Virus record (IMG/VR): IMGVR_UViG_3300028534_000007
DNA: 44,622 nt
Source: a virus
Strand: one strand, 5' to 3'
This document shows, in pieces, positions 11,842 to 44,622 of this stretch. A program made the position numbers and the translations under genes. Within the stretch, counting starts at the first letter, position 1. Every line of letters begins with the position of its first letter. Below the pieces are notes generated by a model that saw nothing but the letters and a program-made list of their open reading frames with translations, ran no database searches and was not told where the DNA came from.

Positions 11842-11844
11842 AAA

Positions 11845-27912: not shown

Positions 27913-28075
27913 ATAGGAAATTTTGAGAAGTCTTTAAAAAGTGGAGCTTTCTTAATACCCACTTTACTACAAAGGAGGAAAAAGGAAAAGGCTATATATA
28001 AACCTCTTAGGAAAACTTAACAATTATAGCCCCTAATCTCCAACCCTACCACCCACCCCAATATCACTATTTGTT

Positions 28076-30664
28076 TTAAATTCCTAACAATGCTCTATCG
28101 AAATTATAATATGCCTCTGCGTGTGCTTCCTTATCGTTGTAATTTGTATCTATATTACATCTTAATAATGTAGCTTCTATTGCACATTTTACAGTAGATG
28201 CGTTAGTGCTAAAAATCCTATCAAAATTAGACAAATAGTTAGCAGAATGGATTAATTCTCCTATAAAGGTATTATCTATATATAAAGAGGTTTGCTTTGT
28301 AGATGCGTTATGGCTTATAAAGATATGGTGTAGAGTGTCTGTAAAGTCTGATTGATTTAACCCATCAAAGTTTACATCAGCCCCATAAAAAGCAACTGTA
28401 AATGTGTCGCTATCTCTCCAACCAATATGAATTGATTTTTGAGTTTCTCTATTCTGCGAGTTTCCAATTAGGTAGTTATTATTTCTTACAACTGCTACTC
28501 TATGCCAAAAGCTAAATTCAAAATTTCTAGTATTTAGGTCTATACCTCCACCACCTAAAGCTATATCTCTACTACCAAAGTTATAAGTGGACGCCCAGTT
28601 AATCCCCTCGATAATGGTGCAATCTACATCATTAACAGCGTATATCCCAGTTACAGAAGTTAAGGCGTTATCTTTAAAACATGAGTGGATTTTATCTCCT
28701 CTCATCATAAAAGCCTCGGTGTTGTTATCAAGAACTTTAAATATAGAGTTGGTTGTTATATTTCTAGTGGCAATATTAACTGTTAAATCTCCACCCCCCA
28801 TAGCTTGGGCTACATTGATATAACCTTTCTTTCTATCCTCTATAACAGCATTAGACACAGTGTCTAATTCTTTTCCTACTGGTAAATCCACCTTAAATCT
28901 ATAAGCATGAACCCCCTCTAAGATAGTGCGTGAAGTCTCTCCGTTATCCACTGTTGCACCATTGAATGTAACAGTCACAGCAGTAGCAATAGTTGAATCT
29001 CTGTCAAGTTTAATGTAACTAGTCCCTATAATACAGAGCGTTGCAGTTCTCCCGTAAACCCTTGTATATAGTCCGCCATAAGTAGTGGTATTTCTCCAAT
29101 ACCCAGCATGAGAACCCTCAATTGGATAGCCACTCCCTGACGCATCATCATCACTAGCCATTTTAATAGCGTGAGTGTGTTCTTGTAAGTCTTGTTCTAC
29201 AAGTTCGCCTATTTCCTCTGGTAGCCCTCTACCACCAGCCCCATACAAGATATCTCCTCTCCAATCGGGAAGAGTTACATCATACCCATTTACACTAAAT
29301 CCTACATATTTAGAGGCATTAGCATTAATATGTTCTGCTAGTAGCTTATCTTTTACAGTCTGTCCGTTTAAGGCGTATATTCCTTTTTGGTGGTCTTCTA
29401 CTTGGAATACAAAACGCCCAACTGCGGAATAATCTACATTTAAAGGTTGTGGATCAAAATCACTTAAAACTCTAACACTATCTTCTGTATAGATTAATTC
29501 TACACTCTGCTTAGTAGTCCCAACAGTATATAATACATCTCCATTCTCATTTTCAATAATTACTTCATTATCATTTTCATCAACCTTAGTAACGGAGATA
29601 TATTTACCCTTTGTTGTAGTGTCTGGATTTGGAATGGTTGCAACAATATCACCGTTAGTGCTATCTACTAGATATTGCTTTCCTGCTTCGGCTGTAAAAT
29701 CTGTATTTATATTTACAGTGTCAAGCTTTCCCCCACCTTCTAATTTATTCCAGTAGCCCTGACTCCCATCAGTTGGAGCAATACCATCTGTTGCATCTTT
29801 GTTAAAAGTATATAAAACAATATCTGGCAAATAAGAGGTAAGCTGTCTAGTTTCTCCCTCTTTAGGTGCTTCTATATCTGCTAAGGTAGATTCATCTTGG
29901 GTTGGAGTCTCCAAAAGGGAGAAATAGCTTCCACCACTTCCAATGTGTGCCTCACCTAATTTGGATGCGTAAATTTGTCTAACATTTTTACTCCCCAAAT
30001 CTACGGTATCTTTTCTAATTAATAGCCCACCAATAAAGTATAACCCTTTTTCTTGTAGGTCTGGTATTGGTTCGTCTATATGCTGGTAACTAGCAGTATT
30101 CAAAGATGTATACTTTCTATCCCCTCTTACTATCTTTAAATCTCCATTCTTAGAGAGATATAGCTTTTGAAAGGTGGTGTTATAGCTTTTGTTTAACTCT
30201 TTAACCGTTCCCCCATCTACATAGTGGAGAGGGTCTATCTCGGTTTGATTAGCATCTGTAATATTTCCATCTGTGTCTATATAGTCAAAAGTTTTGCTTA
30301 GCTGTTCTGGGATATCGTATATATCAAATGCGATTCTTTCAGGGTCAAATATTGTTAGTCTCCCTTGTCTAATTCCAATATCCAAACCACTACCCAAGAC
30401 TAAATCAAAGCCATTCTTAACAGCTCCTATATTCGTATTAAACTCTTTCTGTTTATGGACTAAATCGACTTTTAACCATTTAGAAGGGTCATTCAGCGGG
30501 GAATCCGCCATTATATCGACGGATTCCAGTGCCCTATAAATATCGCCAGTGTTTGGATCTATTGCAAATAAAACGCCATCAGTCCCAAAAACTCTTAGTT
30601 TGCTATCGTATCTTAGCATTAGGTGGTTATCTTTTATATCTGTTTGATTATATGTCTTTATCAT
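28076..30664 (-). CDS. Tail fibre/spike protein with a tail-collar domain and a C-terminal LamG/concanavalin-like domain
   Basis: 862 aa. YALNGQTV..LLAEHI....VTLPDWRGDILYGAGGRG fits the Phage_tail_collar pattern (cdGq..L...f.LPDlRG). The C-terminus FEFSFWHRV...HHIFISHNASTKQTSLYIDNTFIGE fits the LamG jelly-roll pattern. Confidence 0.7.
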   Translation of the reverse strand: MIKTYNQTDIKDNHLMLRYDSKLRVFGTDGVLFAIDPNTGDIYRALESVDIMADSPLNDPSKWLKVDLVHKQKEFNTNIGAVKNGFDLVLGSGLDIGIRQGRLTIFDPERIAFDIYDIPEQLSKTFDYIDTDGNITDANQTEIDPLHYVDGGTVKELNKSYNTTFQKLYLSKNGDLKIVRGDRKYTSLNTASYQHIDEPIPDLQEKGLYFIGGLLIRKDTVDLGSKNVRQIYASKLGEAHIGSGGSYFSLLETPTQDESTLADIEAPKEGETRQLTSYLPDIVLYTFNKDATDGIAPTDGSQGYWNKLEGGGKLDTVNINTDFTAEAGKQYLVDSTNGDIVATIPNPDTTTKGKYISVTKVDENDNEVIIENENGDVLYTVGTTKQSVELIYTEDSVRVLSDFDPQPLNVDYSAVGRFVFQVEDHQKGIYALNGQTVKDKLLAEHINANASKYVGFSVNGYDVTLPDWRGDILYGAGGRGLPEEIGELVEQDLQEHTHAIKMASDDDASGSGYPIEGSHAGYWRNTTTYGGLYTRVYGRTATLCIIGTSYIKLDRDSTIATAVTVTFNGATVDNGETSRTILEGVHAYRFKVDLPVGKELDTVSNAVIEDRKKGYINVAQAMGGGDLTVNIATRNITTNSIFKVLDNNTEAFMMRGDKIHSCFKDNALTSVTGIYAVNDVDCTIIEGINWASTYNFGSRDIALGGGGIDLNTRNFEFSFWHRVAVVRNNNYLIGNSQNRETQKSIHIGWRDSDTFTVAFYGADVNFDGLNQSDFTDTLHHIFISHNASTKQTSLYIDNTFIGELIHSANYLSNFDRIFSTNASTVKCAIEATLLRCNIDTNYNDKEAHAEAYYNFDRALLGI

Positions 30665-31647
30665 TATTTAACCCCTTGTAGTGTTATGAAGTCCCCTTGA
30701 TAAATAAAATTAGTTGCAATCGTAGTAGATAAATCTAACTTTATTTGATTAACTCCATTTACCTTTACTTTACTTGGTGGAACTAAAACGCCATTATATG
30801 TGATATTAGCCCCCGCAACCTCAAAGAGTGTTTTATTTATATCTGAAGTTAAAAAGCTTACATTCTCTAATTGTCCTATTGTAAAGTCTAACGCGTTTCC
30901 ATCGCTATCTGTTAAAGTAGTGTTCGTGCTATCTACTCCTACATTAACCAATACAACTCTATCATCTTTTATAGCTTGGTCACTGTTGCTAGTAGCCTCT
31001 ACATAAAAAGGGAGTGGTTCTTGTAGGTCTAGTAATTCATCTTCAGCAAAACCACCCAATCTATAATTTTCTAAAACTTTGCCCTCTTTTTGAGCTACTG
31101 CTAAAGTTCCCTTGTTATATGCTTCATTCCAATATACTTTATAATCTCCACTTGGAATTTCGACAGCTTCTAAAATGTGGTTCTCATCGTCCCACGCTAC
31201 AAAAGATAATTGGATTCTATTATCTGAAAGGTGTTCACCGTCTGAATGGTCGCTACTCCATAAGGCATGAACTAATCTTCTTTTTAAAACCTTTCCTGTG
31301 TCATCTTTTATAAGGTCTATAACTTCATCATCTTCGCTGTTATAAACTATTGAGAGGTTTCCAACTCTTCCACCTACTTCATTCTGCTTTAGTGAGTGGT
31401 TGCCTATTGTGTCACTAGCACAAATTAAACCACCATTTACAGACTCATAATATGTTCCATCTATATAGCAGTCTTTATCTGGTGCATTCTCAATTGTATA
31501 TCTGTTTGTATCAGCAGATAAAGAGAACTCTAAACTATCGCCTAATACTGGAACTTTAGGCGTAATAGTCTCTGTCATGTTAGCATAATGTGGGACTCCT
31601 GACTTATCAACCCCTAGCTTAATCTCTATTTGTGCATCTTGTATCAT
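30664..31647 (-). CDS. Hypothetical virion/tail-associated protein
   Basis: 327-aa beta-rich ORF between two fibre genes. Its stop codon overlaps the downstream start by 1 nt (shared base 30664). Confidence 0.5.
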   Translation of the reverse strand: MIQDAQIEIKLGVDKSGVPHYANMTETITPKVPVLGDSLEFSLSADTNRYTIENAPDKDCYIDGTYYESVNGGLICASDTIGNHSLKQNEVGGRVGNLSIVYNSEDDEVIDLIKDDTGKVLKRRLVHALWSSDHSDGEHLSDNRIQLSFVAWDDENHILEAVEIPSGDYKVYWNEAYNKGTLAVAQKEGKVLENYRLGGFAEDELLDLQEPLPFYVEATSNSDQAIKDDRVVLVNVGVDSTNTTLTDSDGNALDFTIGQLENVSFLTSDINKTLFEVAGANITYNGVLVPPSKVKVNGVNQIKLDLSTTIATNFIYQGDFITLQGVK

Positions 31648-31658
31648 TGTTTAGCTCC

Positions 31659-33746
31659 TTATTTTTTAAATTCTATCCATGCATTATCATATAAAACGCC
31701 ATTCGGCAAAACTCTATCAGTGTTAATTATTACATCATTTCCACTTTGTGTAATATCCTTGTAAGGGATAACCTGCCCGTTTAAGGTAACTATTAATTTT
31801 CCTGAACCGTTGGATATATCATCTGTTGCATCAGTCTCTTTGATATTTAGAGTTGCACCATCTCCATTTTTTATAGTTATATTTCCTTTTGTAATGGTGG
31901 CTCTTAACTGTCCTTTTGTCTCTTGTTCCCCATCTGATACAGCAAAAGCGTGGGCTTGTTTTAGTTCATTAGCGTAAATTAGAACAGCTTTCCCATCGCT
32001 ATCTATACTATAAGCCCATTGTGTGGATATTCCCTCATCATTTGTAAAGTTACCCCACACAATACAATCTGTATAAGCCTTAGACGCTGAATAGCTTTCT
32101 ACCTCACTTCTTGTTGGTATTTTGTCAGCCTTGTTTATTTCGTCCTCTGGTGCGAAATGGTGGACTACTTTCGGAGTTCCTAATGTTTCAAATCTATTTG
32201 TTCCATTATCCCATTTTTTTAATACGTTCGTATCATCTACTAGATAGATAAAATCTTCATCTCTTGGAGCGTTGGTTTGTAAATCCAAATCGTTAGCCAT
32301 TCTCCATAGTTCTTTATTTGCTCTTTTTTGTTTACCATCTTCATAGTAATATAGTTTCCCGTAGTGGTCTTTATCTACAAAAAGAGTGTTCTCTTGATTT
32401 GCATCATTTTCATTCTCTATAAACTCAACACTACCAGCACCAGCCGACTTTATATCTACAAATTCAGTTCCATTCCAATAGTAAGCATGGTCGTTTGAAG
32501 TATTTACAAATAGTTTTCTACCATTTAAAGGGGCGAAATCATCGCTATCATTTGCTATTTGTATCTCTTCTTCTTGGGCGTCTGCTAATACCTGATAGCT
32601 CGTGCCGTCCCAATATCTCAATACTCCCTTATCATCTAAGTATAAAACTCCATCTGTTCCCTTAGTTGGTAGTTGATTATATAATATTCCATGTGGGATA
32701 TACTCAGAACCATCAAACATATAAGGGGTTTTAGTGCTTCTATCTATATAGATTTTGTCTAGTGTTGCTGTGGTCTTATCGGGGAAATCCTCTTTTTTGT
32801 CATAGAACTCAATAGTCCCCTCTTCTCTTTTACCAATCCACGCCCCATCTGTTGCACTGTAATAGAAGAACATATCACGGCTTCTATCCCACGCAATAGC
32901 TCCATTTACTGCTGGATTTGGTGCATTTTCTATTTTATCTACTTCGGTTACTATTGGAGTAGTTCTATCATCTAAAACAAGATAATAACCACTTACAACA
33001 TCATTTACATTTAGAGGTAACTTAAATCTTATAATTTTCCCGTCTGGTGCTTCATAGTCATCAAGACTCATCCTGATTCCATTTAGATATACAGCCAATC
33101 CGTGGAGCTGATATCCCTCTGGTATTGCAATCTCTGTTGCACCACTCGTAAGGTTTTCAACATCAAAGTTCCTTAAGTCTCCGTCCCATGTGCTAAACCC
33201 ACTTACAACATCATCATACTCTAATGGCTCGGTAAAAGTTATAGTTTGTCCATCGATGGCAATAAAGTCATCAAGAGACATCTTGACACCATTTAAATAC
33301 ACTTGAACAGTATCAGGGTTATAGCCCTCAGGGATTGCAACTGTTGAGGTTGTGCCATCAACATTGACATCAAAACTCTTAAAGTGTGTTCTCTCCTGAA
33401 CACTAAACGGAACAGTAGATAAACTCTTTTGCCACACCTTGCCATCATAGACATACAGAACTTTATCAACAGTGTTCCAATACATTAAGCCAACCGATAG
33501 CCCCTTGCCGTCTATATCCATTTTAGGATGGCTACTTCTATATCCTAAATACATGTGGTCAAAAGAGTTTAAACACTCACATAAATTATCAGGATATTTT
33601 ACTTTTTCTAATTCAGTAGCTAATAATTTTTCTGATGGTATTCTGTCTTCTGTGGGGGTATCACTTAAAACAGTTACAACAGAAGTTTTATCTACTTTTT
33701 TATCACACTCTAAATTTAATTGCTCTTGGGTTACATAACTAGCCAT
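31659..33746 (-). CDS. Tail fibre-like protein with tandem approximately 65-aa domains and repeated hairpin motifs
   Basis: 695 aa. Duplicated blocks VNVDGTTSTVAIPEGYNPDTVQVYLNGVKMSLDDFIAIDGQTITF and VENLTSGATEIAIPEGYQLHGLAVYLNGIRMSLDDYEAPDGKIIRF resemble the T7 gp17 N-terminal fold pattern. A hydrophobic-Y-W-D/N-G-T motif recurs about six times. Confidence 0.55.
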   Translation of the reverse strand: MASYVTQEQLNLECDKKVDKTSVVTVLSDTPTEDRIPSEKLLATELEKVKYPDNLCECLNSFDHMYLGYRSSHPKMDIDGKGLSVGLMYWNTVDKVLYVYDGKVWQKSLSTVPFSVQERTHFKSFDVNVDGTTSTVAIPEGYNPDTVQVYLNGVKMSLDDFIAIDGQTITFTEPLEYDDVVSGFSTWDGDLRNFDVENLTSGATEIAIPEGYQLHGLAVYLNGIRMSLDDYEAPDGKIIRFKLPLNVNDVVSGYYLVLDDRTTPIVTEVDKIENAPNPAVNGAIAWDRSRDMFFYYSATDGAWIGKREEGTIEFYDKKEDFPDKTTATLDKIYIDRSTKTPYMFDGSEYIPHGILYNQLPTKGTDGVLYLDDKGVLRYWDGTSYQVLADAQEEEIQIANDSDDFAPLNGRKLFVNTSNDHAYYWNGTEFVDIKSAGAGSVEFIENENDANQENTLFVDKDHYGKLYYYEDGKQKRANKELWRMANDLDLQTNAPRDEDFIYLVDDTNVLKKWDNGTNRFETLGTPKVVHHFAPEDEINKADKIPTRSEVESYSASKAYTDCIVWGNFTNDEGISTQWAYSIDSDGKAVLIYANELKQAHAFAVSDGEQETKGQLRATITKGNITIKNGDGATLNIKETDATDDISNGSGKLIVTLNGQVIPYKDITQSGNDVIINTDRVLPNGVLYDNAWIEFKK

Positions 33747-33756
33747 ATTTTAACTC

Positions 33757-34590
33757 CTATTCAACATTTATTAAGCCATCATCTATATATAGTTTCTTAG
33801 GTCTATTAGTGGCTTTATCTATCAATATAATTTCATCTCTTTTAATCATGTTATCTAATTCCTCTATCTTCTTATCTGCAAATTCTTGCACCTTGGATAT
33901 AGATAGATTTGTTTTAGAGAAAAGAAGAGTTTTTAACTCTGAATAGGTGTTATTTAACTGCCCTTTCCCTCTTTCTATAATCTTATCAATATCCAAAGCT
34001 TTTTTATTTATTTTTTCTAATATCTTGTTTACTCTTTCTATATCCAAACTCTTAAATTTAAGGTCTATCTCTTTTAACGCTCTCTCTTTTAAATCGTTTA
34101 TCTTACTAGAATACTCTTTAAGCTGATTAAGAGAGGAGTTAGCAAGGGCTTTGAAAGTTTTAGTTTGGTGCTGTATCTCTGATTTAAAATCCTCTATATT
34201 TTTATAAAACGTGTTCCTCTCATTCTCAAGGCTATAAATTTGTTGCTGTAGATTTGCCTTTGCTCTTTCTATATCTTTTTGGATTTGTTCGATATTCTCT
34301 ATATTTTTTATAACTGCTTTGGCTTGTTCTAGTAATAGTTTTGTCTCTTCTAAATCGTCTTGTTTTATCCTATTAGTAAGTTTGTAGCTCTCTAACTCTA
34401 AGATATTAGCCTTTTCGGTGCTAGTAGAATAGTTATATATAGTTACTATATCTTTTGGCTCAAACTCCAAAACTATATCATTTCCAACTATGTAAAAGGG
34501 AGTTATCTTGTGTCCTATAAAAACAAGATACTTACTACCCTTTCCAAATTTCCTAAAACTCCTACTTGGTTTAAATTGTCTAACTGTCAT
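33757..34590 (-). CDS. Coiled-coil virion protein (fibre shaft/adaptor-like)
   Basis: 277 aa with a short beta-rich N-terminus followed by about 200 aa of uninterrupted heptad-like sequence. It lies directly after tail tubular B. Confidence 0.45.
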   Translation of the reverse strand: MTVRQFKPSRSFRKFGKGSKYLVFIGHKITPFYIVGNDIVLEFEPKDIVTIYNYSTSTEKANILELESYKLTNRIKQDDLEETKLLLEQAKAVIKNIENIEQIQKDIERAKANLQQQIYSLENERNTFYKNIEDFKSEIQHQTKTFKALANSSLNQLKEYSSKINDLKERALKEIDLKFKSLDIERVNKILEKINKKALDIDKIIERGKGQLNNTYSELKTLLFSKTNLSISKVQEFADKKIEELDNMIKRDEIILIDKATNRPKKLYIDDGLINVE

Positions 34591-34592
34591 AC

Positions 34593-36722
34593 TTATCCTC
34601 TCTTTGGCTGTGGTTCAACTTCTAAAGTTAGGTTTATTAATTCAATATCTAGTGGCTTATCCTCTACGCTCTCTATTATTATATCGGTGTTAAAATTATG
34701 CCCGTTTAATACATGTTGCTTGTTTGGATATGGATTTGGAAGAGAATTTATAATATAACTGTCTGTTTCTCTTTCTACTTCTATCTTGTAATCCCCATTA
34801 GTTACAAATAATTCTATTCTCTTATACCAAAATTTAAGCCACGTCTTACCCTCTCCTAATAGGTTTTTAGGTAGGTAAGCCCTTGATATAAAGTTCCTAT
34901 CATCATCTCTATAATTATTTGTATCCTCATTTATTAGGTCAATAGCATATATTCCATCTGCTCCGACTAATATTAATTTACCCTCTTGCACTTCTATATT
35001 ATATATCTGTGTGCCAATGTTCCAAAGATAACAATCTCCATCTTTGATAACCACTACATTGTTAGAGGTGCTATCTAAGAGAAATAAATAATTTCTTTCT
35101 GGATATACTGCTATATCCTTAGCCCCTTTTATTAAGCCTCTGAAACTCTGTGATATTTCCCTACTTGCTCCATCTGGACTAGTGGCGTAAAGCCTATTAT
35201 CTGCAAGGTAGTAAACTATATTTTGACTAACTATCGCATGAGATATATTTAGCTCTGACACCTTAACAATATAATTTGTGTCCTCTCCTGTGTCTCCTAC
35301 TAGCCTATTAATATAAATCCCATTAGTAGTAAAGATATAAAGCCCATATTGAAAAGTTCCAACCTTTAATATTTTCTCTCTCTTAGATAGGCTCATTCCA
35401 TAAAATTTAGGATCGTTAGATAACTCTGCTCTTGCTGTGGTATAAAAGAAGTTAATAGCCCTATCCTCTATTATAGCACTTAAAGAGATACTATCAGAGG
35501 TAACAAACCCTAAACGCCCATTATAATAAACTGCATCTTGTATATAATTATTTATAAATGGTGGGTGTGGTGCTGTGGCGTGTTTTCTCTTTAGCTCCAT
35601 AAAAGATAAACTAAAATCATCTAAAGAGGTGCGATATAGAGTTAGTGGCATAGTTCTATTGTCTATCTCTCTATCTTCTGAAGGGTCGGCACACTCTATC
35701 CACTTTCCTCTTTCATGTTCTACAAAGTATCCAGTCCCGTTTTCTTTAACTTTAACTATGGCGTAACTAGAAGGCTGGGGGTTTGGGCTAGGTGGAGGCA
35801 ATTTATTAGGCTCTACAAGCTTAACCCCTCCTAATTGCGTATCTGGTTCGTCTCTAGTGACTTCTGCTAAATAGTAATCATTGTATCTGTGCGACCATTC
35901 CCAAACCTCATAATAGGGCTCTCCGTCATTTTTTTCATAATAAAACCATTCATAGGAGGTGTTATCAAAATTTTGTGGTAAATCCTCCATTCTTTCCACT
36001 TCTCTATAAATAAGCTTTAAAGCCTTATTCCCAAAAGTATCAGATACCCTAGTTTCAGTATCTGCCCCTTTTAGCATAGATAAAACGCTTCCAAATTTAG
36101 AGGTGTTTGGAATTAGTGCAAAGTCCTCAATAACCTTTATTGTATCATCTCTTTTAGTCCAATATGTAGTCCCGCCAACAGTTAGAAAATAAGTGTAGCC
36201 ACCGTTTAGAGTAGTTGATTCTTTAGCCCACACTAAACGCTTACGCTTATAAAATACTGCGGGGCTGTGTTCTATGGGTTTCATTTTTACCTGTTTTGTG
36301 CGGTTGATAATAAAAGTAGTATCCCTTATTGTTACGCACTTAAATACCTCTTGTGGTGTCATATCTGCTGGAAATTGTAGATAGTTATCTAAATCTACAT
36401 CACTATTTCCAAACGCCCTATAATTTAAATTCTTTTGGTTTCCTTGGTTATCTAATATATATATAACCCCTTGGCGTGTTTGTGCATCTATGTCTTTATA
36501 TGTAATTGCTATGAGGTAAGTCTCTTTATTATCTCCTCTATCATACGTATATATACAACTATCCTCTCTAAGGGAGAGATTAGAATATTTTTTAGCTCCG
36601 TTTCTCCTCTTTAATAGAAAATCCTCTACTAACATATTCTCTATTAGCTTACTCTCATTCTGCCCTTGTCTGCTAATTGGTAGTGTGCTTGTAGAGGCAG
36701 GAAAAACATTTTTTACTATCAT
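34593..36722 (-). CDS. Tail tubular protein B (T7 gp12-like nozzle)
   Basis: 709 aa. VFKCVTIRDTTFIINRTKQV matches gp12 LRMVTVADYTFIVNRNVV, and FINNYIQDAVYYNGRLGFVTSDSISLS matches gp12 SSINDVFFFRNRLGFLSGENIILS. Confidence 0.85.
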   Translation of the reverse strand: MIVKNVFPASTSTLPISRQGQNESKLIENMLVEDFLLKRRNGAKKYSNLSLREDSCIYTYDRGDNKETYLIAITYKDIDAQTRQGVIYILDNQGNQKNLNYRAFGNSDVDLDNYLQFPADMTPQEVFKCVTIRDTTFIINRTKQVKMKPIEHSPAVFYKRKRLVWAKESTTLNGGYTYFLTVGGTTYWTKRDDTIKVIEDFALIPNTSKFGSVLSMLKGADTETRVSDTFGNKALKLIYREVERMEDLPQNFDNTSYEWFYYEKNDGEPYYEVWEWSHRYNDYYLAEVTRDEPDTQLGGVKLVEPNKLPPPSPNPQPSSYAIVKVKENGTGYFVEHERGKWIECADPSEDREIDNRTMPLTLYRTSLDDFSLSFMELKRKHATAPHPPFINNYIQDAVYYNGRLGFVTSDSISLSAIIEDRAINFFYTTARAELSNDPKFYGMSLSKREKILKVGTFQYGLYIFTTNGIYINRLVGDTGEDTNYIVKVSELNISHAIVSQNIVYYLADNRLYATSPDGASREISQSFRGLIKGAKDIAVYPERNYLFLLDSTSNNVVVIKDGDCYLWNIGTQIYNIEVQEGKLILVGADGIYAIDLINEDTNNYRDDDRNFISRAYLPKNLLGEGKTWLKFWYKRIELFVTNGDYKIEVERETDSYIINSLPNPYPNKQHVLNGHNFNTDIIIESVEDKPLDIELINLTLEVEPQPKRG

Positions 36723-37300
36723 CTATCTAGCCCCCAAAAAGAACGCCATGAATAGTTACAATTTTTCTTAGAACCTAGAAAGTTAAGCCCTTGCTCATCT
36801 ATGTTTCTTTGTATTGCATTAGCTTTTTTTCTAATCCAATTATCTTGTAAGCTAGATAAGGTATCTTGGATATTACCACCTAAAGTAGCCCTAAGTTCCC
36901 ACGCTGTTTGAGCTGTCACTAACTCTATAAAATATGGTGGTGCAAGGTCTAAGGGCAAATCCTCAATGAGTATCAATCTTGTTCCACTATCAAACTTAAA
37001 ACTTTGTTTTTTAATGTCATAGAGTTTATTATCTATGTTCCTATATTGTAGTTCTCTTCTTAGAGGGTTTCTGAAACTTAAAATACCGTCAAGATGTATT
37101 TCTCCATTGATGTCTGGTTCTAATACCCTATTAGAGGTATTCCAGCCCCAGCCATTAGCTTCTAGTTCTAGCCTTACTTCATCTATCTTATTAACTACCC
37201 TCTGGGCGTCTCTATCTGTGTTTATAGTTATGTCATCTACCAAAGGTAAGCTAAGAAGTTCTAAAACCTTATTTACCTCTCTAAGAAGATTAAAAGCCAT
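36719..37300 (-). CDS. Tail tubular protein A (T7 gp11-like adaptor)
   Basis: 193 aa. VNKVLELLSLPLVDD...AQRVVNKIDEVRLELEANGWGWN matches gp11 VNDILASIGEPPVS...[20 protein letters not shown]. Confidence 0.85.
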   Translation of the reverse strand: MAFNLLREVNKVLELLSLPLVDDITINTDRDAQRVVNKIDEVRLELEANGWGWNTSNRVLEPDINGEIHLDGILSFRNPLRRELQYRNIDNKLYDIKKQSFKFDSGTRLILIEDLPLDLAPPYFIELVTAQTAWELRATLGGNIQDTLSSLQDNWIRKKANAIQRNIDEQGLNFLGSKKNCNYSWRSFWGLDR

Positions 37301-37303
37301 AAT

Positions 37304-38194
37304 CTACACTGCACTTCTTATCTCTGTTAATTGGCTTGGAACTAGCACACCTAAACCAATAAAAAACTTACCTAGTAGTAAATTCCCTAAATAGTCTGGA
37401 AGATAATCTATACTAGTTCTAATCCCATTATACAAGTCTAGTCTTCCTGCTACATCTTCCCCATAAAGGAAAGCTACTGTTTTCTCTGACTCTCTCTGCT
37501 GGTTAAAGGTATTAGAAACAATAATTTGCTTAATTCCAAATCTTGCAAGAACATCTACATAATCTCTATTTGCAAAATATTTACTTAGTAAAATGTGGGA
37601 GTAATTAGTTGCATTTGTCACAATAGTTACATTATCCCAAATATATCTATCATGCCTATTGTCCATTGCCTCAATAATAGCTAATACTATCTGATTTCCT
37701 CTCTCCTCTTCGTCTGTTGCTGTTGCGATTTGGGGTCTTACTACTACTTGAGCGTTACCCATTCCAACTTTTCCGTTTGTGGACATTGCTGTTTGGATTG
37801 TGTCTAAAATCCTCATATCATACTTTTGTGCTAGAATATATCCAATTTTTTGTGAGTATTTATCTAGTATGTTGAAGTCATTTAAGTTTGTTTGGTTCTC
37901 ATCTGCAAAGATAGAGAAGTATGTAACATTATCATCATAATTTAAAAACACATGGTCGGTTTCAATTGTGCTTGTATCTACTTGTGTTCCTGCTGTGTGT
38001 TGTTGAATATCTGCTAAGTTAGGATTTCCAACTAAAGGGAAACTATAACCTAACCCACTAACAGAGGGGCTTCTGTTAATTGTCTCTACTAGTTTCAATC
38101 TATCCTCGTAAGCTACAATAGTTCTATTTCTAAAATAGAGCAGTATGTCCTCATTAGAGAGGGTCTTATTGTTGTTTTGGGTATCAAATGCCAT
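37304..38194 (-). CDS. Major capsid protein (T7 gp10-like)
   Basis: 296 aa. SGLGYSFPLVGNPNLADIQQHTAGTQV...YSQKIGYILAQKYDMRILDTI is colinear with gp10 SGKSAQFPVLGRTQAAYLAPGENL...YTSQLGESLAMAADGAVLAEI. Confidence 0.82.
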   Translation of the reverse strand: MAFDTQNNNKTLSNEDILLYFRNRTIVAYEDRLKLVETINRSPSVSGLGYSFPLVGNPNLADIQQHTAGTQVDTSTIETDHVFLNYDDNVTYFSIFADENQTNLNDFNILDKYSQKIGYILAQKYDMRILDTIQTAMSTNGKVGMGNAQVVVRPQIATATDEEERGNQIVLAIIEAMDNRHDRYIWDNVTIVTNATNYSHILLSKYFANRDYVDVLARFGIKQIIVSNTFNQQRESEKTVAFLYGEDVAGRLDLYNGIRTSIDYLPDYLGNLLLGKFFIGLGVLVPSQLTEIRSAV

Positions 38195-38353
38195 TTTAAG
38201 TTCCTTTCTGAAAAATATAACATTGGTAAATAGATAATGGAAAAATAAAAGCGAGGTTACCCTATAGGCTCTACAATGCTATATTATAGAACCTATTATC
38301 TTAATCTTTTATTGTTGGGTAGTGGGCTTTGGATTACTATCTTTTGGTTCTAA

Positions 38354-38806
38354 CTAAAAGGATTCAACCAACTCATCATATAATTTGGTATATTCCTCTA
38401 TTAGCAAATTCCTGTTATGGCACTCTAACGATTCATAACGACTTTTTATGGATTCAAACTCCCTCTCTTGTAGGTAAACAATAACCTCTTTCTTATCTGT
38501 ATCAACCTTAAAATATACACCATCCATATCATTATTCATCACTTTTTTTAGATTTATTGTATCGCTAAACTCATACATAACATCTAGTAGGGATATAAAT
38601 AATTTCAAATCAGACACAAGCCATCTTCTAAATGCTTCGGGGAGATATATGCCACCTACCTTACTATTAGCAATTGCTATTTTAACCAGCGATATTAAAT
38701 TATTATCATCATCTACACTATCAATATCAACGCCAAGCGAGGCAAACCCCGCCCTTAAAGCGGACAATTCCAGTGTTTTAATTTCTGTTTCTTTTTTTTT
38801 GTTCAC
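38354..38806 (-). CDS. Hypothetical protein between scaffold and capsid genes
   Basis: 150-aa ORF, coupled to the upstream ORF (ATGA). No motif recognised. Confidence 0.55.
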   Translation of the reverse strand: MNKKKETEIKTLELSALRAGFASLGVDIDSVDDDNNLISLVKIAIANSKVGGIYLPEAFRRWLVSDLKLFISLLDVMYEFSDTINLKKVMNNDMDGVYFKVDTDKKEVIVYLQEREFESIKSRYESLECHNRNLLIEEYTKLYDELVESF

Positions 38807-39558
38807 TTCTTTTTTCCCTCCTTTTTAACTTTATCTCTCTTGTGTTGTTCTTCTGCTCCAAACACCAATGAACCATAAACTACTTTACCATCACTTTTTG
38901 CAATCCTATCTTTTTCATTTAGCTTACAAATATTATTAATACCTCTCTCTAATAGGTATTCAAAAGTGTGTGGCTCTACTAAGTAATTATTTTGTGGGTT
39001 GTCTTTAATTTCCCCGATAACTGCATTCCCTGTTAGCACCTGATTATCCCTTAGGACTACAATAGATACATTTAGGGAATTTATAAAATTGTATCTCCTT
39101 AAAAAAGGTAATGTCCCATCTATTTTTGGTCTCATATATGTAACATATATAGTTTCTTTTCTCCTGTCTAACATATTTTCCTTAAAATATTCCTCTCTTA
39201 TATTTTTATATTTCCACTTACCTTCTAAAAGGATAGGGCTAGAGAATTCTATTAGTTTCTTTCTATCATCACTTAGCTTACGCCCTAGCTTAAGAGGGTC
39301 TTTTATTGCTGGAGTTTTGATTGGTGCATAAAATAGAGATGGGCAAAGGGGGTTCCGCTTATACCATCTTCCATTTATAAACACATCTACTAGATAAACT
39401 TCTGCATAGTTTGTAATTAGTTTTCCTATCAGCCTTACAAATCCAATATCTCCCTCTTTTACACAGTCTGGAAAGATTGGATTATTTGGTGTAAAATCAT
39501 ACACTACTGCGTAAGGTGTGCTAGAGTATCTAAATCTTAATTCTGTTTGAAGTTTCAT
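38803..39558 (-). CDS. Hypothetical protein between scaffold and capsid genes
   Basis: 251-aa ORF with a basic C-terminal tail (KRDKVKKEGKKK). No motif recognised. Confidence 0.55.
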   Translation of the reverse strand: MKLQTELRFRYSSTPYAVVYDFTPNNPIFPDCVKEGDIGFVRLIGKLITNYAEVYLVDVFINGRWYKRNPLCPSLFYAPIKTPAIKDPLKLGRKLSDDRKKLIEFSSPILLEGKWKYKNIREEYFKENMLDRRKETIYVTYMRPKIDGTLPFLRRYNFINSLNVSIVVLRDNQVLTGNAVIGEIKDNPQNNYLVEPHTFEYLLERGINNICKLNEKDRIAKSDGKVVYGSLVFGAEEQHKRDKVKKEGKKK

Positions 39559-39562
39559 CTAA

Positions 39563-40345
39563 TCAATATTTCTTCCCTGTAAAACTTCTTCTAGCCTTTG
39601 CCATTACTGCATCTCTAAAGGCTCTATCACTGCTAAATCGTGGATCCCTCATTGCTTGTTGTAACTCTTTCTCGCTCGTAAATTTGTCTTGACTGCTTCC
39701 CATTCTTTGAGTATATGGATTGAATAATTGTGAGTTTGGTTGTGCTTGGTAACCCTCATACAACATCTTGGATATTTTAGCAAGTAAAGAGGGATTATTT
39801 TCATTTAGATTCTGTATCATGGCTTTTTCTTGTTCGGAGAAATAATCCCCACTAAACAACTCATTAGTAAACTCTACTATCTCGTTTCTTTGTTCTCCTA
39901 GTATCTCCAAAGCCTCTAATGTTTTCTGTTTTGCCTCTAACTCTTTTAGTGCCTTAGAACTCTCTATATTGGATTTAACTATGTCTATAACCTCATCAGT
40001 ATAACCTAACTCTTTTAACTGCTGTCTATCATTATCATCTAAATATGACTTCTGGGATAACTTCTCTTCTAATATCTCACTCAAACTCTTCTTTGGGTTT
40101 TCTAGCTGTTCTACTTTTTGCTTTAGTTGGTGGAACTCGTTTAATTTTTGATAGTGAGTTTTCTCTAACTCCTCATAAGACTTTTTAAGGTCTTCAACAC
40201 TTTTAAAATTACGGAAATTAAACCCCCCATCACTTTTGATATCTGTTTGGTTATCTCTATTAGTTGGTTCATTGATTGGTTCTTGTTGAGGTTGAGTTTG
40301 TTGTTGTGCTGTTTGTGTAGTTGTTGGTGTCCCTTGTTTATCCAT
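39563..40345 (-). CDS. Putative scaffolding protein
   Basis: 260 aa with a Q/T-rich N-terminus and a long acidic coiled coil. It lies between the portal and capsid genes, as T7 gp9 does. Confidence 0.6.
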   Translation of the reverse strand: MDKQGTPTTTQTAQQQTQPQQEPINEPTNRDNQTDIKSDGGFNFRNFKSVEDLKKSYEELEKTHYQKLNEFHQLKQKVEQLENPKKSLSEILEEKLSQKSYLDDNDRQQLKELGYTDEVIDIVKSNIESSKALKELEAKQKTLEALEILGEQRNEIVEFTNELFSGDYFSEQEKAMIQNLNENNPSLLAKISKMLYEGYQAQPNSQLFNPYTQRMGSSQDKFTSEKELQQAMRDPRFSSDRAFRDAVMAKARRSFTGKKY

Positions 40346-40539
40346 TAAAATCTCCCTTTCAATACTCTATTTACATCATCTCTACTAGCTCCAAGCTCTA
40401 TCGCTATTTGTTCTACCTCTTTTCCTGATTTTCTTAGTCTATTAACCATAATTACAAAGCTTTTTTTGTCCATAAATTTAGCTGTGCTTCTATATTTTTT
40501 GCCTCGCTCTTGATATACCTCTTCACTGTCTAAAATCAT
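40345..40539 (-). CDS. Small helix-turn-helix protein (sigma region 4 / LuxR-like HTH)
   Basis: 64 aa. KSGKEVEQIAIELGASRDDVNRVLKG fits the G-x-s..eIA..lg.s...V.r.l pattern. Confidence 0.45.
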   Translation of the reverse strand: MILDSEEVYQERGKKYRSTAKFMDKKSFVIMVNRLRKSGKEVEQIAIELGASRDDVNRVLKGRF

Positions 40540-40754
40540 TATCTATCGTCCCTATATAATCTAACATTACATTTATCATCTCTATTTACTTTCCTACAAC
40601 CATTTAATTCGAATTTTACACCTTGTGGCTCTAGGTTAGAGTAATCTACACCATCAGTTTGTGTGCCATCGCATGGGTAACATGGACGCCCTATTCTATT
40701 ATCAACATAGACTATTAAACAGGAATCTTTCACTATTGTATTAATCATTTCCAT
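40539..40754 (-). CDS. Hypothetical Cys-rich small protein
   Basis: 71-aa ORF, coupled at both ends, with five Cys residues (CYPCDG..C..C). Confidence 0.45.
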   Translation of the reverse strand: MEMINTIVKDSCLIVYVDNRIGRPCYPCDGTQTDGVDYSNLEPQGVKFELNGCRKVNRDDKCNVRLYRDDR

Positions 40755-40951
40755 TTCTCCTTTTCTTCATTTTTTAATTTTGCTCCATACTTACCATGGC
40801 TTGGGTCTATTTTTCTATCCTTATAAACCTTAGACGCGTCATAGACTTCACTAGATAGAGCAATGGGGATATTAGTATCTTTTTTCTTTTTAGTTATCTC
40901 TTTTATATAGTCTATCAGCTCTTTCTTAGTCATCTTTTCTAGTTCTTTCAT
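40745..40951 (-). CDS. Hypothetical small lysine-rich protein
   Basis: 68-aa ORF whose start overlaps the portal stop (ATGA). Confidence 0.45.
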   Translation of the reverse strand: MKELEKMTKKELIDYIKEITKKKKDTNIPIALSSEVYDASKVYKDRKIDPSHGKYGAKLKNEEKEKWK

Positions 40952-42417
40952 TGTCTAGCTCCTTGTTGTGGTTGATTTTCTAATTGTTGTTGTATCATCG
41001 CTTTTTGTATTTGGGTTTGCTCTTCTGCTTGTATCTCCTCTTTATCTTTTAATACCTCATCAGTATTAACGCCTATAACATCAGCATAAGCCCTAAACAC
41101 CTTTTCACTAGATATAAATTGTTGTGCCTCTCCTAATTGATATATAGCCTCTAAAGGGACTAAAGCAGAGAGTTTATTTAATTTATCAAGGTTTCGGACA
41201 TCACCGATACCATTAATAAATTCTACCTTAACATCTTTTAGCTTTTTGTCTATCTTCATTTTAGATAGTAGCCAATCAAAAACGGGATTTTGTAGAGAGT
41301 GGGCTATTGTAATATAAAAGCCTCCAAATTTTTCACTCATCTCTTGTATTAGGGTTTGTATCTCGTATGCTGTGGTTTGTCTCTCTCTGATTACTCCAAC
41401 ACCTCTTAAAAAAGACGCTGATAATCTTCTCTCCACATTCTCTAAGTTTTGATACACCACATTCATATTAACTTGTTGAGGGCTATATGCTACTAAATCA
41501 CCCTCCATACCTACTATAAAATCTCCACTTTTGGAGTTCTTAACCTCTTCCAAATTATCAGCGATAACAGATGCAGGATTTACAAGATGTAATACTTTAG
41601 CCCCTTGCTCTGCACTGTCTCCCATTCCAACAGCTAACTTATCATATAGTTGTAAATCTCCTAAATGTCTATAACAGTATCCATATGAGTAGTTAAACCC
41701 TATCTCTTCGTATAGTTGGATAGGATATAATAAAATCTCTTTTACGGTTCTAGTCTTCTCTACTACCTCAAAATCTTCTATATACTCTTTTATTTGGTAG
41801 CCTTTATCTACTTTTGTTATCTCTATATAGAATGGATAAACATCTGGGACGCTGGTAGGATCGTATCTATTGCTTAATCCCTCTATATATTTTACATACG
41901 GTGTGTTATCATCTGGAAGTATAATTATCTGTTTTTCTATTATTATCTTATACCATTCACCATTTTCACGCCTCATAACTACATATTCATCTAGCCTATA
42001 AAAAGAGGGGTTGTTACTAGTAAAATCAAGCAACACGTTACCAGTAATAAGCAAATGCTCTATTACTTGAACCATATAACCCCTAATATTATTTTCCTCT
42101 GCAAACAGTCGTATTTGCTCTTCTAGTGCTATTAATAGGTTTGTAGCTGTTTCGTCTTTAACCTCTGAGTTGAGCTTAAAAAAGTTTGTTCCAAAAGGGA
42201 AGATTGATTTAACCAATTTACTAGCTAAGGTTGAGACTAAATCAGCTCCTAATGCTTGGTTTCTTATAATAATATCATCTTCGGTTAGTGTATCATATAG
42301 AGTAGATAGTGTATATTTTTCAATCTCTTCTGCTACATCTATATATCTCTCTCTATCTATCTTATATCTTTCTAAGTCTTTTAAGAACCCAGATTGTATA
42401 TATATGCTCTCTTTCAT
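40948..42417 (-). CDS. Portal (head-tail connector) protein, T7 gp8-like
   Basis: 489 aa. LERYKIDRERYIDVAEEIEKYTLSTLY...LGADLVSTLASKLVKSIFPFGTNFFKL matches gp8 YERLKNDRAPYETRAQNCAQYTIPSLF...GARGLNNLASKLMLALFPMQTWMRL. ITGNVLL, YGYCY..LGDL and SGDFIVG blocks are also shared. Confidence 0.9.
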   Translation of the reverse strand: MKESIYIQSGFLKDLERYKIDRERYIDVAEEIEKYTLSTLYDTLTEDDIIIRNQALGADLVSTLASKLVKSIFPFGTNFFKLNSEVKDETATNLLIALEEQIRLFAEENNIRGYMVQVIEHLLITGNVLLDFTSNNPSFYRLDEYVVMRRENGEWYKIIIEKQIIILPDDNTPYVKYIEGLSNRYDPTSVPDVYPFYIEITKVDKGYQIKEYIEDFEVVEKTRTVKEILLYPIQLYEEIGFNYSYGYCYRHLGDLQLYDKLAVGMGDSAEQGAKVLHLVNPASVIADNLEEVKNSKSGDFIVGMEGDLVAYSPQQVNMNVVYQNLENVERRLSASFLRGVGVIRERQTTAYEIQTLIQEMSEKFGGFYITIAHSLQNPVFDWLLSKMKIDKKLKDVKVEFINGIGDVRNLDKLNKLSALVPLEAIYQLGEAQQFISSEKVFRAYADVIGVNTDEVLKDKEEIQAEEQTQIQKAMIQQQLENQPQQGARQ

Positions 42418-42572
42418 CTATTACTATCCAAATCTATAACAAATATTTGGCTCTGATAACTCTTTTTTTTCTTCTTCTTGGTTTGATAAGTGTTTACACT
42501 CTGTAAACCTTGCTCTGTGCTAGTTTTAATCGTAGTAGTATTTGGCTGTGGTGCTGAAAATATGCCACCCAT
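42414..42572 (-). CDS. Possible 52-aa protein coupled to the portal gene, not in the ORF track
   Basis: My translation: MGGIFSAPQPNTTTIKTSTEQGLQSVNTYQTKKKKKKSYQSQIFVIDLDSNR. Its stop overlaps the portal ATG (ATGA), and its start follows the upstream stop (TAAAATG). Confidence 0.35.
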   Translation of the reverse strand: MGGIFSAPQPNTTTIKTSTEQGLQSVNTYQTKKKKKKSYQSQIFVIDLDSNR

Positions 42573-42573
42573 T

Positions 42574-42747
42574 TTATACCCTCTCTTTCTCTAATTTTGC
42601 GATTAGTAGTCTTATATATAATATAACTTCTTGATTTCCTTGTAATCTCACAAACTCACTCTTTTTAGTTCCCTTTTTTAGTGGTATGTGGTCAGGAAAT
42701 TTTTTTAATAGCTCTTTTTCTAGTTTTTTTAGTGTTCCATAATCCAT
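42574..42747 (-). CDS. Possible 57-aa protein, not in the ORF track
   Basis: My translation: MDYGTLKKLEKELLKKFPDHIPLKKGTKKSEFVRLQGNQEVILYIRLLIAKLEKERV. It fills an otherwise empty gap, but no SD is visible. Confidence 0.3.
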   Translation of the reverse strand: MDYGTLKKLEKELLKKFPDHIPLKKGTKKSEFVRLQGNQEVILYIRLLIAKLEKERV

Positions 42748-42831
42748 ATAGTTATTATATAGTGTGAAGTTTAAGAAAGTAGGAGAGGAGAAAATTAAGA
42801 AGATACCCCTCTAAAAGGGATATTTAAGGAT

Positions 42832-44127
42832 TTAGAATAATTGTTTAGTGGTTTTAAATCCTGCTGTGTTTCCGTTGGGGTGTCCGCCACCTTGATAGCT
42901 CTCTGCTAATGCTGTGGCTTTTCCTTGAATGCTTCTAACTCCATAAAACCAAATATCTTTTTCAGGGTGCTTGTTTTGATTTATAGCTATCTCTATGTTT
43001 GGATTTGCTTTAAGTGCTACATTTAAAGTATCACTTAGATATATCTTTGGGACATCTCTAAAAAACAGTGCAGATACTCCGTCAATGATTCCAACAGTAA
43101 ACTCTTTTGATAGCTCCTCTACTTTTTCTATATACTCCTCATATAAAGGCTTTCCCAACCCTATAAGGGTATTAACTCTATTTTCTTTTATTGCTGTTAG
43201 AATTGTGTTATCTGACGCTATATCAGCAGATTTAACGGCATGATATATAATATCTGTATCAGGGTTATACTTCTTTATAAATAGGTCTCTATCTTTTATA
43301 TATTTTACTAGCTCCTCCCCATGTCTGAGAGAGTTATTTTTATATCTATCTAACCAAAATAAAGAAGTTCCACATTCCTTTTCACTATAATAATACTCTT
43401 TTCCCTTCGGAGTATATGTTAGTCTGTGGTGGTCATATATCTCTATTTTACCTCTTTGACTTACTAGAACATTATTATACTGCTCCTCTGTTGGTGCTAT
43501 ATCTATAAAGATTATGCTATCGCCTCTAAAAGAGTTAATCATCTCTACCAGTTTGCTAGACGGTGGATTAAGTTTGCTGTCTGATTCTACCCATAAAGGG
43601 AATTTTATAACATCTTTGTTCCTGTCTAAGAAGACATATTGTGTTGTGCTATCATCGAATAAAGCTTTAGCCAAACTATACCCACCTCTCCCATCATTAT
43701 CAGCACCATCTACAACAACCATTGTAGAGTGTGGAGTTATAGTCAATGTTTCGTTTTGTGCCTCTATTAGCTCTTTCGCAGTAACTGGCTCTATATCTAT
43801 CTTGCTGTGTGATGTGATACTAATAGTAACCTTATCGTAGTCGAACTTAAAAGAAACAGTAAACATAACCTTAAATTCCCCATCTACAAAGATTTTAGTT
43901 CCAACTATTGGGTTAAAGATCTCTTTCTTTAGGTCAAGAATATCATTATAGAAGTTCTCCAATTGATTGTGTATCTCTCTATCTGTATAAAGAGAAATAT
44001 CCAAAGCATTATCATACTCATTTAATTTGCTAATCACTTGGTATTTAGCTCTTAAAAAAAGCTCATCATTTCCAACAAACTGGTTTTCTCTTTTAATTAC
44101 AAACTCATGTTTTCTGCTCTTTGCCAT
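42832..44127 (-). CDS. DHH/DHHA1-family phosphoesterase (NrnA/RecJ/GdpP-type catalytic core) with a unique 130-aa N-terminal domain
   Basis: 431 aa. Motif I/II-like HSTMVVVDGADNDGRGGYS, IIFIDIAP, motif III IEIYDHHR, DHHA1 motif QGGGHPNGNTAGF. AAAAGGA SD. It is the first gene downstream of promoter 44189-44161. Confidence 0.8.
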   Translation of the reverse strand: MAKSRKHEFVIKRENQFVGNDELFLRAKYQVISKLNEYDNALDISLYTDREIHNQLENFYNDILDLKKEIFNPIVGTKIFVDGEFKVMFTVSFKFDYDKVTISITSHSKIDIEPVTAKELIEAQNETLTITPHSTMVVVDGADNDGRGGYSLAKALFDDSTTQYVFLDRNKDVIKFPLWVESDSKLNPPSSKLVEMINSFRGDSIIFIDIAPTEEQYNNVLVSQRGKIEIYDHHRLTYTPKGKEYYYSEKECGTSLFWLDRYKNNSLRHGEELVKYIKDRDLFIKKYNPDTDIIYHAVKSADIASDNTILTAIKENRVNTLIGLGKPLYEEYIEKVEELSKEFTVGIIDGVSALFFRDVPKIYLSDTLNVALKANPNIEIAINQNKHPEKDIWFYGVRSIQGKATALAESYQGGGHPNGNTAGFKTTKQLF

Positions 44128-44160
44128 TTTTAATCCTTTTCAAGTTTATTTTATAACCGT

Positions 44161-44189
44161 ATTATACATAAAAAATTTTTGTTTGTCAA
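44161..44189 (-). promoter_or_regulatory. Consensus sigma70 promoter (TTGACA, 17 nt, TATAAT) driving the leftward arm
   Basis: On the minus strand, TTGACA at 44189-44184 and TATAAT at 44166-44161. The spacer AACAAAAATTTTTTATG is related to those of the promoters at 4796 and 8328. Confidence 0.65.
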
Positions 44190-44220
44190 TAGGAGTTTAT
44201 CTTTTATTTTGTTTTTTTTT

Positions 44221-44622
44221 GAAAAAGTAGCCAGAGAACCCAAAAAGGTAGCCACTTTTTTCAAAAAGGTAGCCAACGCAAACGCCTATTTTTCGGGGGG
44301 CTTAATGGGGTAGCTACTTTTTTGAGCTAAAAAAAGGTAACCAGAGAACCAAAAAAAGTAGCCACGGCACAAAAAAAAGGTAGCCAATTCCAAATCTTAA
44401 ACGAAATAATTAATTTTTAGCCACTTTTCTTAAACTTTTAAACTAATTTGCCCCTTAGCTACCTTTTTGGCTACTTTTCTGAAAAAAAAAGGTAGCCAAC
44501 GCAAACGCCTATTTTTCGGGGGTTTACTCTATGTTGCACTAAAAAAGGTAGCCAATTTTGACACCCCCAAAATTAATATTTTATTTTTAGTGGATTTTAA
44601 GCTAAAAAAGGTAGCCAACGCA
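44221..44622. repeat. Iteron field, left half: AAAA(A)GGTAGCCA 12-mers in both orientations plus 37-nt long units
   Basis: Forward copies near 44222, 44242, 44263, 44329 (GGTAACCA variant), 44351, 44371 and 44482. Inverted copies near 44311, 44457 and 44469. Long units at 44263-44300 and 44486-44522. The 45-nt block 44242-44286 is identical to 241-285. Confidence 0.85.
44496..44622. repeat. Right copy of the exact 127-bp terminal duplication
   Basis: Identical to 1-127. Confidence 0.9.

Follow-up and report, generated by a model that had tools for sequence, protein, structure and literature searches.

A field of short A-tract repeats with a lineage-specific word at the genome junction of a phage with a T7-like virion, a possible iteron-type replication origin

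Introduction

The ori/crr region of satellite phage P4 holds about 16 copies of an octamer, direct and inverted and arranged in two clusters, which are bound by the C-terminal origin-binding winged helix of the P4 alpha protein, a primase and superfamily 3 (SF3) helicase. In iteron plasmids and at the lambda ori, the Rep or O protein binds direct repeats of 17–22 base pairs (bp) with intrinsic bends. The origins of the Staphylococcus pathogenicity islands (SaPIs) carry iterons on both sides of an AT-rich centre, running in opposite directions; these are read by the C-terminal winged helix of a self-loading Rep helicase of the SF3 clade, with a specificity that differs between related islands (PMC9371898). 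Here we analyse a stretch of viral DNA of 44,622 bp (IMG/VR record IMGVR_UViG_3300028534_000007; 'the window' is this whole stretch), whose two ends meet inside a dense field of repeats made of an A-run followed by GGTAGCCA. The array is most likely functional and bound by a phage protein, with the words most likely serving as its docking sites, and our leading, though still tentative, reading is that the field is an iteron-type replication origin.

The locus resembles the SaPI origins in its convergent sites round an AT-rich spacer, in an NTPase with a variable C-terminal domain encoded by the same phage and in a switch of motif between relatives. SaPIs, however, have 6–12 penta- or hexanucleotide iterons directly downstream of rep, whereas here 19–28 A-tract sites of about 12 bp extend over 0.7–1.4 kb and the NTPase gene lies 4.8 kb away in the window. 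Compared with P4, the motifs are unrelated and the window NTPase is not fused to a primase. With iteron plasmids and lambda, the field shares two-turn direct repeats, A-tract bending, inverted copies and an AT-rich neighbour. Those systems have only 3–8 iterons and another class of initiator, however, and the lambda origin sits inside the initiator gene. A further likeness is to the T7 concatemer junction (SRL/SRR and the 160-bp terminal repeat), where dozens of copies of a short word likewise fill 0.5–0.8 kb of non-coding DNA next to early promoters. The T7 copies differ in being unidirectional 7-mers without A-tracts or an 11-bp lattice, and the T7 junction lies just beyond the terminase gene, whereas here the terminase is 13 kb away.

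A dense two-strand repeat field across the genome junction

In the window there are 11 copies of the exact 8-mer GGTAGCCA, where 0.78 copies are expected and dinucleotide-preserving shuffles (n = 100) reach at most four. All exact copies lie on the plus strand and are confined to 44247..399, read across the joined ends. Two of them are counted twice, since the copies at 52 and 115 reappear at 44547 and 44610, so the number of unique exact cores is nine. This double counting comes from the window ends, which form an exact 127-bp direct repeat (1–127 = 44496–44622). De Bruijn assemblers usually go up to k = 127, and the close relatives L001/L125 and L126, which were assembled independently, read through the junction. 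Since they carry a single copy, we take the end repeat to be an overlap left by the assembler in a circular or concatemeric assembly and the unique genome to be a circle or concatemer unit of 44,495 bp, in which joining the window ends counts two copies twice. A true direct terminal repeat of 127 bp was considered and rejected on the same grounds.

To count sites in unique coordinates, with the 127-bp overlap removed, we used the relaxed pattern AAA-G?GT[AT][AG][CT][CTA]A. This gave 19 unique sites of the A-run plus GGTAGCCA kind in 671 bp (44224..399), 14 of them forward and five inverted, and eight loose matches in the remaining 43.8 kb. The field as a whole (44222..399, about 673 bp, 64.6% AT) is gene-free apart from an open reading frame (ORF) with a TTG start at 148–339. 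An earlier note on this DNA had claimed at least 15 iteron copies, with at least 12 forward and 3–5 inverted. All of these figures were borne out, the forward count once variants with one mismatch are included. Also present are the degenerate copies it listed (180–202, 985–1000 and 1068–1081), the ORF, which encodes 63 amino acids and overlaps repeat copies at 180–323, and the divergent host-type promoters at 44189 and 1302, each a match at 12 of 12 sigma-70 positions. Counting the motif on both strands, as the note proposed, thus left the array real but the copies at 52 and 115 not additional, and the field length of about 800 bp that the note obtained by joining the ends had to be corrected for the overlap counted twice.

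The sites are regularly arranged. Forward neighbours are often spaced 21–22 bp apart, and the forward sites follow an 11.0-bp lattice (coherence 0.65, P = 0.0006; one of four periods tested). Three inverted/forward pairs form palindromes with their A/T runs facing inward. Copies have also spread by local duplication, for example in 62-bp blocks at 95–100% identity. Within the left part of the field, a forward site (44371–44386) and the inverted sites at 44456–44478 converge, cores first, on a site-free spacer of 69 bp with 75% AT (44387–44455). The same convergent layout is found in a sister lineage of about 81% nucleotide identity (L136, with L124, L378 and L379), where the spacer is 78% identical though the flanking word differs (the GGTAGTAA lineage). 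The composition and setting of this spacer make it a candidate melting region.

The earlier note had instead pointed to about 900 bp of 'very AT-rich' DNA as a DNA-unwinding element. This was overstated: the stretch at 400–1301 has 71.5% AT compared with 66.5% for the genome, which places it in the top 2% of 900-bp windows. Better candidates for unwinding, judged from composition and conservation, are the 44387–44455 spacer and the short stretch at 563–622. The latter contains an inverted repeat, TCATAACA-N13-TGTTATGA, and its conservation in the 81%-identity lineage is 91%; it could act as a promoter or operator, or as an alternative unwinding element. The conserved inverted repeat (563–612, equivalent to 842–887 in L136) overlaps an extended -10-like sequence, TGTTATGAT.

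Four forward copies are extended by a 27-nucleotide element, GCAAAC-GCCTATTTTTCGGGG-GTTTGC, which we call ext. In its general form, GCAAAC-N15-GTTTGC, it always lies 3' of a forward repeat copy and is kept across lineages, with copies in L136 at about 300–340, 427–459 and 570–600 and one copy in L128 at 2186–2207. In L136, and also in the degenerate window copy at 1003–1031, the inner 15 nucleotides have the opposite orientation. Two ext copies of L001 and L126 share the same CGGGGG to CGGTAG change, which suggests concerted evolution. We folded nine ext copies (five from the window, one from L126/L001, two from L136 and one from L128) and rejected a conserved hairpin, as only one of the nine folded better than shuffles.

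The array keeps its place while its word changes between lineages

Among close relatives, L125 is 96.6% identical to the window in nucleotides over 13.7 kb aligned, while the non-coding region is about 99% identical, with one difference in the 889 bp to the right of the field. Because this exceeds the identity over the aligned 13.7 kb, it suggests either that the non-coding DNA is under constraint at least equal to that of coding DNA or that it was exchanged recently or in mosaic fashion. Identity across 41851–44622 is about 91% in nucleotides. There is a step in it: the DHH-phosphoesterase gene (42832–44127) is 89% identical in protein and the adjoining 1.3 kb (44128..1290) about 99% identical.

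At the equivalent place, L136 carries at least 28 copies of a AAAGGTAGTAA-type repeat (AAAGGTAG-TAA; word GGTAGTAA), often as 11-bp tandems and spread across the whole 1.4 kb. The majority (20 of 28) are flipped relative to the window, and the inverted sites again follow an 11-bp lattice (P = 0.011). Further away, L128 and L127 have portal proteins of 55–56% identity to that of the window phage. In L128, AAAAAGGTGTACCC occurs three times at exactly 21 bp, together with related and inverted copies (word GGTGTACCC), and GGGTACA is found seven times in the region and nowhere else; L127 has a weaker GGTTACC array. The words of all these lineages have in common a start of A-run plus GGT. Comparing the 12-mer among relatives, another proposal of the earlier note, hence showed that the place and architecture of the array are kept and that the word itself is lineage-specific. 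Since the array stays in place while its word changes by lineage, a phage-encoded binder that co-evolves with the sites is implied. Iterons and packaging arrays are known kinds of element; the notable part is the clean motif turnover between sister lineages and, as far as the protein alignments tell, the localization of the accompanying divergence in two small protein domains.

In L128, a promoter-plus-leader of 64 nucleotides is duplicated (1058–1121 and 2414–2477, 92% identity) and flanks a 161-residue gene and the array, so that the array would be transcribed there from the upstream copy.

Other searches with the field returned little. A nucleotide search with 43000–44622 against about 50,000 phage records gave no match, and neither Rfam (at gathering and E-value thresholds) nor a tRNA search gave anything credible. 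When viral contigs were scanned with the 14-mer AAAAAGGTAGCCAA, nearly all matches were single and chance-like. Scanning metagenome and viral contigs with the gapped triple AAAGGTAG gave no portal or NTPase homologue among the matches listed; these loci, among which we noted two isolated weak matches to other window proteins, look like unrelated one-orientation tandem repeats.

Candidate binding proteins

As binders, the earlier note had named, among others, an SF3-like NTPase and the KilA-N protein. An exhaustive search for relatives of the NTPase, a protein of 446 residues, yielded a family of 102 representatives in which the Walker A and B residues are invariant. Many members are the C-terminal halves of proteins of 750–1140 residues. 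We scanned 41 members (the window protein and 40 matches) for domains and found Prim-Pol in two, PriCT_2 in three, DUF5906 in three, RepB_primase in one and Toprim in one. Because family members form such C-terminal halves and carry primase domains, the window protein is, by homology, best regarded as the C-terminal helicase module of a primase-helicase type replication protein.

Comparing the GCCA with the GTAA lineage gave an NTPase identity of 85% for residues 1–285 and of 49% for residues 286–446. Among the six early proteins that L136 encodes, the NTPase has the lowest overall conservation. The other early proteins are less divergent (76–94%), including KilA-N at 81%. In L127, an NTPase homologue (30% identity, E = 1e-21) is encoded by a gene whose start borders on the array, and this homologue matches the C-terminal part of the PHROG 'DNA primase' (E = 2e-27). 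In L128, the distance between the array and the start of a genuine DUF5906 gene is about 700 bp. The last 120 or so residues of the window NTPase, modelled alone, were predicted to form three helices followed by a beta-hairpin (predicted local distance difference test score, pLDDT, 81). The top structural neighbours of this model, none of them significant, were the winged-helix proteins CRP/CprK, the oriT-binding TcpK, HSF and Cdt1. A full-length AlphaFold model was discarded, as its pLDDT of 45 made fold matches meaningless. By sequence, the NTPase had no match among solved structures, P4 alpha homology included, and no homology to SaPI Rep was detected. Homologue searches with the DHH protein and with the NTPase gave two clusters each.

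The NTPase is thus favoured as binder by its array-adjacent homologue, its C-terminal divergence and its primase-helicase family, a case tempered by the equal divergence of a putative small terminase. KilA-N is a weaker candidate, since it keeps 81% identity through the change of motif. The putative small terminase, a 135-residue ORF, has an identity of 56% between the motif lineages and diverges most in its N-terminal half, while in the same comparison the large terminase is 87% and the gp16-like protein 83–85% identical. It is a small-terminase candidate by position, it diverges together with the motif, and the earlier note had not considered it.

An origin reading and its rivals

The earlier note had offered a replication origin and a T7-like junction used in packaging, and both remain as the two leading readings. 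If the field is an origin, the A-run plus GGTAGCCA words would be sites for a phage initiator, most likely the 446-residue NTPase acting through its variable C-terminal helix-plus-wing domain. Given the lattice of about 11 bp, the 21-bp spacing and the phased A-tract in each copy, many protomers could bind cooperatively on one face of bent DNA. The duplex would then be opened at the 44387–44455 spacer, between the convergent groups of sites, and the helicase would be loaded there. A DnaG-like primase (11845–12822) and a host polymerase, the latter needed because the phage has no recognisable DNA polymerase, would take over from there, and the strong flanking promoters may aid opening. We infer in this scheme the binding of the NTPase to the sites, the start of replication by that binding and the place of melting. 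If the origin reading is right, the field marks the replication start of a phage with a T7-like virion and no recognisable polymerases. The sister lineages, about 81% identical and differing in GGTAGCCA versus GGTAGTAA, would also be a natural experiment on the co-evolution of an initiator or terminase with its sites.

Several observations weigh against an origin served by this NTPase. The protein's own Pfam match to DUF5906 is sub-threshold (E = 0.009), it has no detectable homology to the DUF5906 protein of L128, and its gene lies 4.8 kb from the field in L136 as well as in the window. Fold searches of the PDB and BFVD with the C-terminal model gave no significant match (best E = 0.2, template modelling scores 0.2–0.45). 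Since the 135-residue ORF is as divergent as the NTPase domain, covariation with the motif gives two candidates rather than one. The 19–28 sites over 0.7–1.4 kb are more than most origins have, and T7, whose terminase is of the same type, has a dense array much like this one at its concatemer junction. In L132 and L134, the first gene upstream of the portal follows after only about 90–100 bp at the equivalent junction, which shows that the array is not always found here. Cumulative GC skew is lowest at the field and highest at 13 kb, but we rejected it as origin evidence because it tracks gene orientation exactly. Finally, a second repeat-rich region at 22869–23546 could be an alternative origin site.

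The main rival is a T7-style array of the concatemer-junction or packaging kind, containing or flanking a direct terminal repeat, with the word bound by the small terminase or used in concatemer processing and the initiation of packaging. We consider this a serious alternative, though less likely than an origin. The phage has a T7-type large terminase, a T7-like virion module and the T7 order of structural genes, and because of the terminase type it probably packages its genome with direct terminal repeats. In the T7 sequence, which we retrieved and counted, the first 500 bp hold about 25 CCTAAAG-like copies, a similar density, and the right end holds another run within and beside the terminal repeat; about 30 CCTAAAG copies are present at the junction. 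The succession of array, leader of about 900 bp with a host promoter and early genes mirrors the T7 left end, the field is the sole large non-coding region adjoining the early genes, and the putative small terminase has the variable N-terminal half described above. The 127-bp contig repeat, as an assembler overlap, is uninformative on the virion ends, however, and orientation speaks against a directional signal: five of the 19 sites are inverted here and 20 of 28 are flipped in L136, whereas exact T7 copies are all on the plus strand. The terminase gene lies at 13.4–15.1 kb, while the field sits between the early leader and the start of the structural operon, and the 135-residue protein matches no terminase family and, by sequence, no solved structure. 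To our knowledge, the function of the CCTAAAG arrays of T7 itself has not been established, and the present field could illuminate these unexplained short-repeat arrays. It is also conceivable, but improbable in our estimate, that one rapidly re-specifying array on an 11-bp lattice is both origin and concatemer-junction or packaging signal in a T7-like lineage that no longer has RNA and DNA polymerases of its own, the functional counterpart of the T7 CCTAAAG arrays; if so, the GCCA/GTAA/GTACCC/TTACC series and the co-diverging domains would offer a handle on what junction arrays do.

Alternatively, KilA-N or another early product might coat the field to time or insulate the promoters or to bend the DNA. 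A-tracts in helical phase are known to activate promoters when placed upstream of them, and the field lies upstream of a perfect promoter, 33 bp from the -35 hexamer, whose activity must be delayed in a phage without its own RNA polymerase; the L128 field, moreover, is bracketed by the two copies of its promoter and leader. Against such an architectural or regulatory array, which we judge unlikely, no site overlaps either promoter core, the rightward promoter is some 900 bp from the last strong repeat copy, and 19–28 sites far exceed what an operator needs. The conservation of KilA-N across the motif switch also fits it poorly, and a separate, more operator-like 24-bp array lies upstream of the third perfect promoter. 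The local duplication noted above would be expected of neutral repeat expansion without function, yet we give that explanation very little credence, as arrays, each with the word of its lineage and with the phasing kept, persist at the equivalent place down to 55% portal identity, and as the non-coding DNA of close relatives is more conserved than their coding DNA. Least plausible of all is a centromere-like partition array of the plasmid R1 parC/ParR type, used if the element persists as a plasmid: the 11-bp lattice and the 11-bp tandems of L136 do resemble parC-type centromeres, but the gene content is that of a lytic podovirus, and in the proteins that we scanned with Pfam and PHROG, encoded beside the field and elsewhere, there was no ParA, ParM or ParR-like protein, no integrase and no repressor.

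Genome context and other features

The coordinates of the repeat sites and of the main neighbouring features are given in table 1.

Table 1. Positions of the repeat sites, associated elements, promoters and candidate genes in the window.
Feature	Position	Strand	Remarks
Repeat field, left part	44222..44495		forward sites end at 44233, 44254, 44275, 44343, 44364, 44386
Forward site crossing the junction	starts 44482	+	next forward site after 44386
Inverted sites, left part	44311–44323, 44456–44468, 44468–44478	-	relaxed pattern
Repeat field, right part	1..399		forward sites 46–59, 109–122, 241–253, 262–274, 385–399
Degenerate forward sites, right part	180–191, 190–202	+	relaxed pattern
Inverted sites, right part	224–236, 311–323	-	relaxed pattern
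Duplicate of 1–127	44496..44622		assembler overlap, no additional copies
ext element, GCAAACGCCTATTTTTCGGGG..	44276..44302	+	directly 3' of forward 12-mer
Other ext copies	4–30 (= 44499–44525), 123–149, 275–301; degenerate 1003–1031		
Degenerate 12-mer AAAAAATGTAGTCA followed by ext element	985..1031	+	inner part of ext inverted (GCAAACCACCGAAAAATAATAGTTTGC)
Further degenerate 12-mer	1068–1081		
Stretch of at least 85% AT	563..622		60 bp; sole such stretch in the non-coding region
Promoter, structural operon	44161..44189	-	TTGACA-17-TATAAT, perfect 12/12 sigma-70
Promoter, early/replication operon	1302..1331	+	TTGACA-18-TATAAT, perfect 12/12 sigma-70
Third perfect sigma-70 promoter	22932->22904	-	24-bp arrays 105–370 bp upstream
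P-loop NTPase, SF3-like, 446 residues	5184..6524	+	Walker A G164-K165, Walker B D207-E208
ORF of 135 residues, putative small terminase	15089..15496	-	overlaps start of large terminase gene (13416–15092)

Genome-wide, gene blocks are preceded by six perfect or near-perfect sigma-70 promoters, all in the sense direction. The minus-strand module (44127->13416) follows the T7 order, with portal, scaffold, capsid, tail tube A and B, fibre, gp16-like internal protein, the 135-residue ORF and the large terminase. The terminase is of T7 type and matched 2,752 phage records; the matches listed include Autographiviridae and other T7-like podoviruses (DNA maturase B), the best at 38% identity. On the plus strand (1372–13330) lie genes for an SF2 helicase, a YqaJ exonuclease, a Dam-type methylase, the KilA-N protein, the DnaG-like primase, a resolvase and several proteins annotated without a function. 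No RNA or DNA polymerase was recognisable in this phage genome. A protein of 683 residues (2629–4680) without a family match is, at 94% between lineages, the most conserved early protein and may be a novel polymerase or primase-polymerase. The lineage is rare: its portals form seven clusters in a set of 5.8 billion proteins, and IMG/VR has four of its contigs. Scans of genome collections with the NTPase profile and a conserved 28-mer gave no match and no host.

The second ORF-free, repeat-rich non-coding region (22869–23546) holds 3.3 copies of a 24-bp unit at 23037–23115 and 3.5 copies of a 24-bp unit at 23221–23304, the latter at 98% identity and with each unit internally palindromic. These two arrays have the top tandem-repeat scores in the genome. 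Because of the 24-bp period and the palindromic units, the region looks more like an operator. Relatives covering 22869–23546 were sought and none was found.

A 175-bp block to the right of the field (786–960, equivalent to 1068–1240 in L136) has 88% identity in the comparison of the two lineages, with a T9 run at its end, and the non-coding DNA around it is otherwise poorly alignable. Its ORFs are not conserved: a plus-strand ORF of 20 residues is interrupted in L136, and a minus-strand ORF of 41 residues is 69% identical. The block, which had no match in Rfam or in bacterial genomes, could represent a small RNA or a different kind of cis element.

Within the structural module, two genes between scaffold and capsid (38354–39558) are hypervariable, with 29% and 54% identity between lineages. 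In L127 and L128 they are replaced, including by FtsK-like or DUF87-type ATPases, and the locus appears from these comparisons to be a variable island within the head module.

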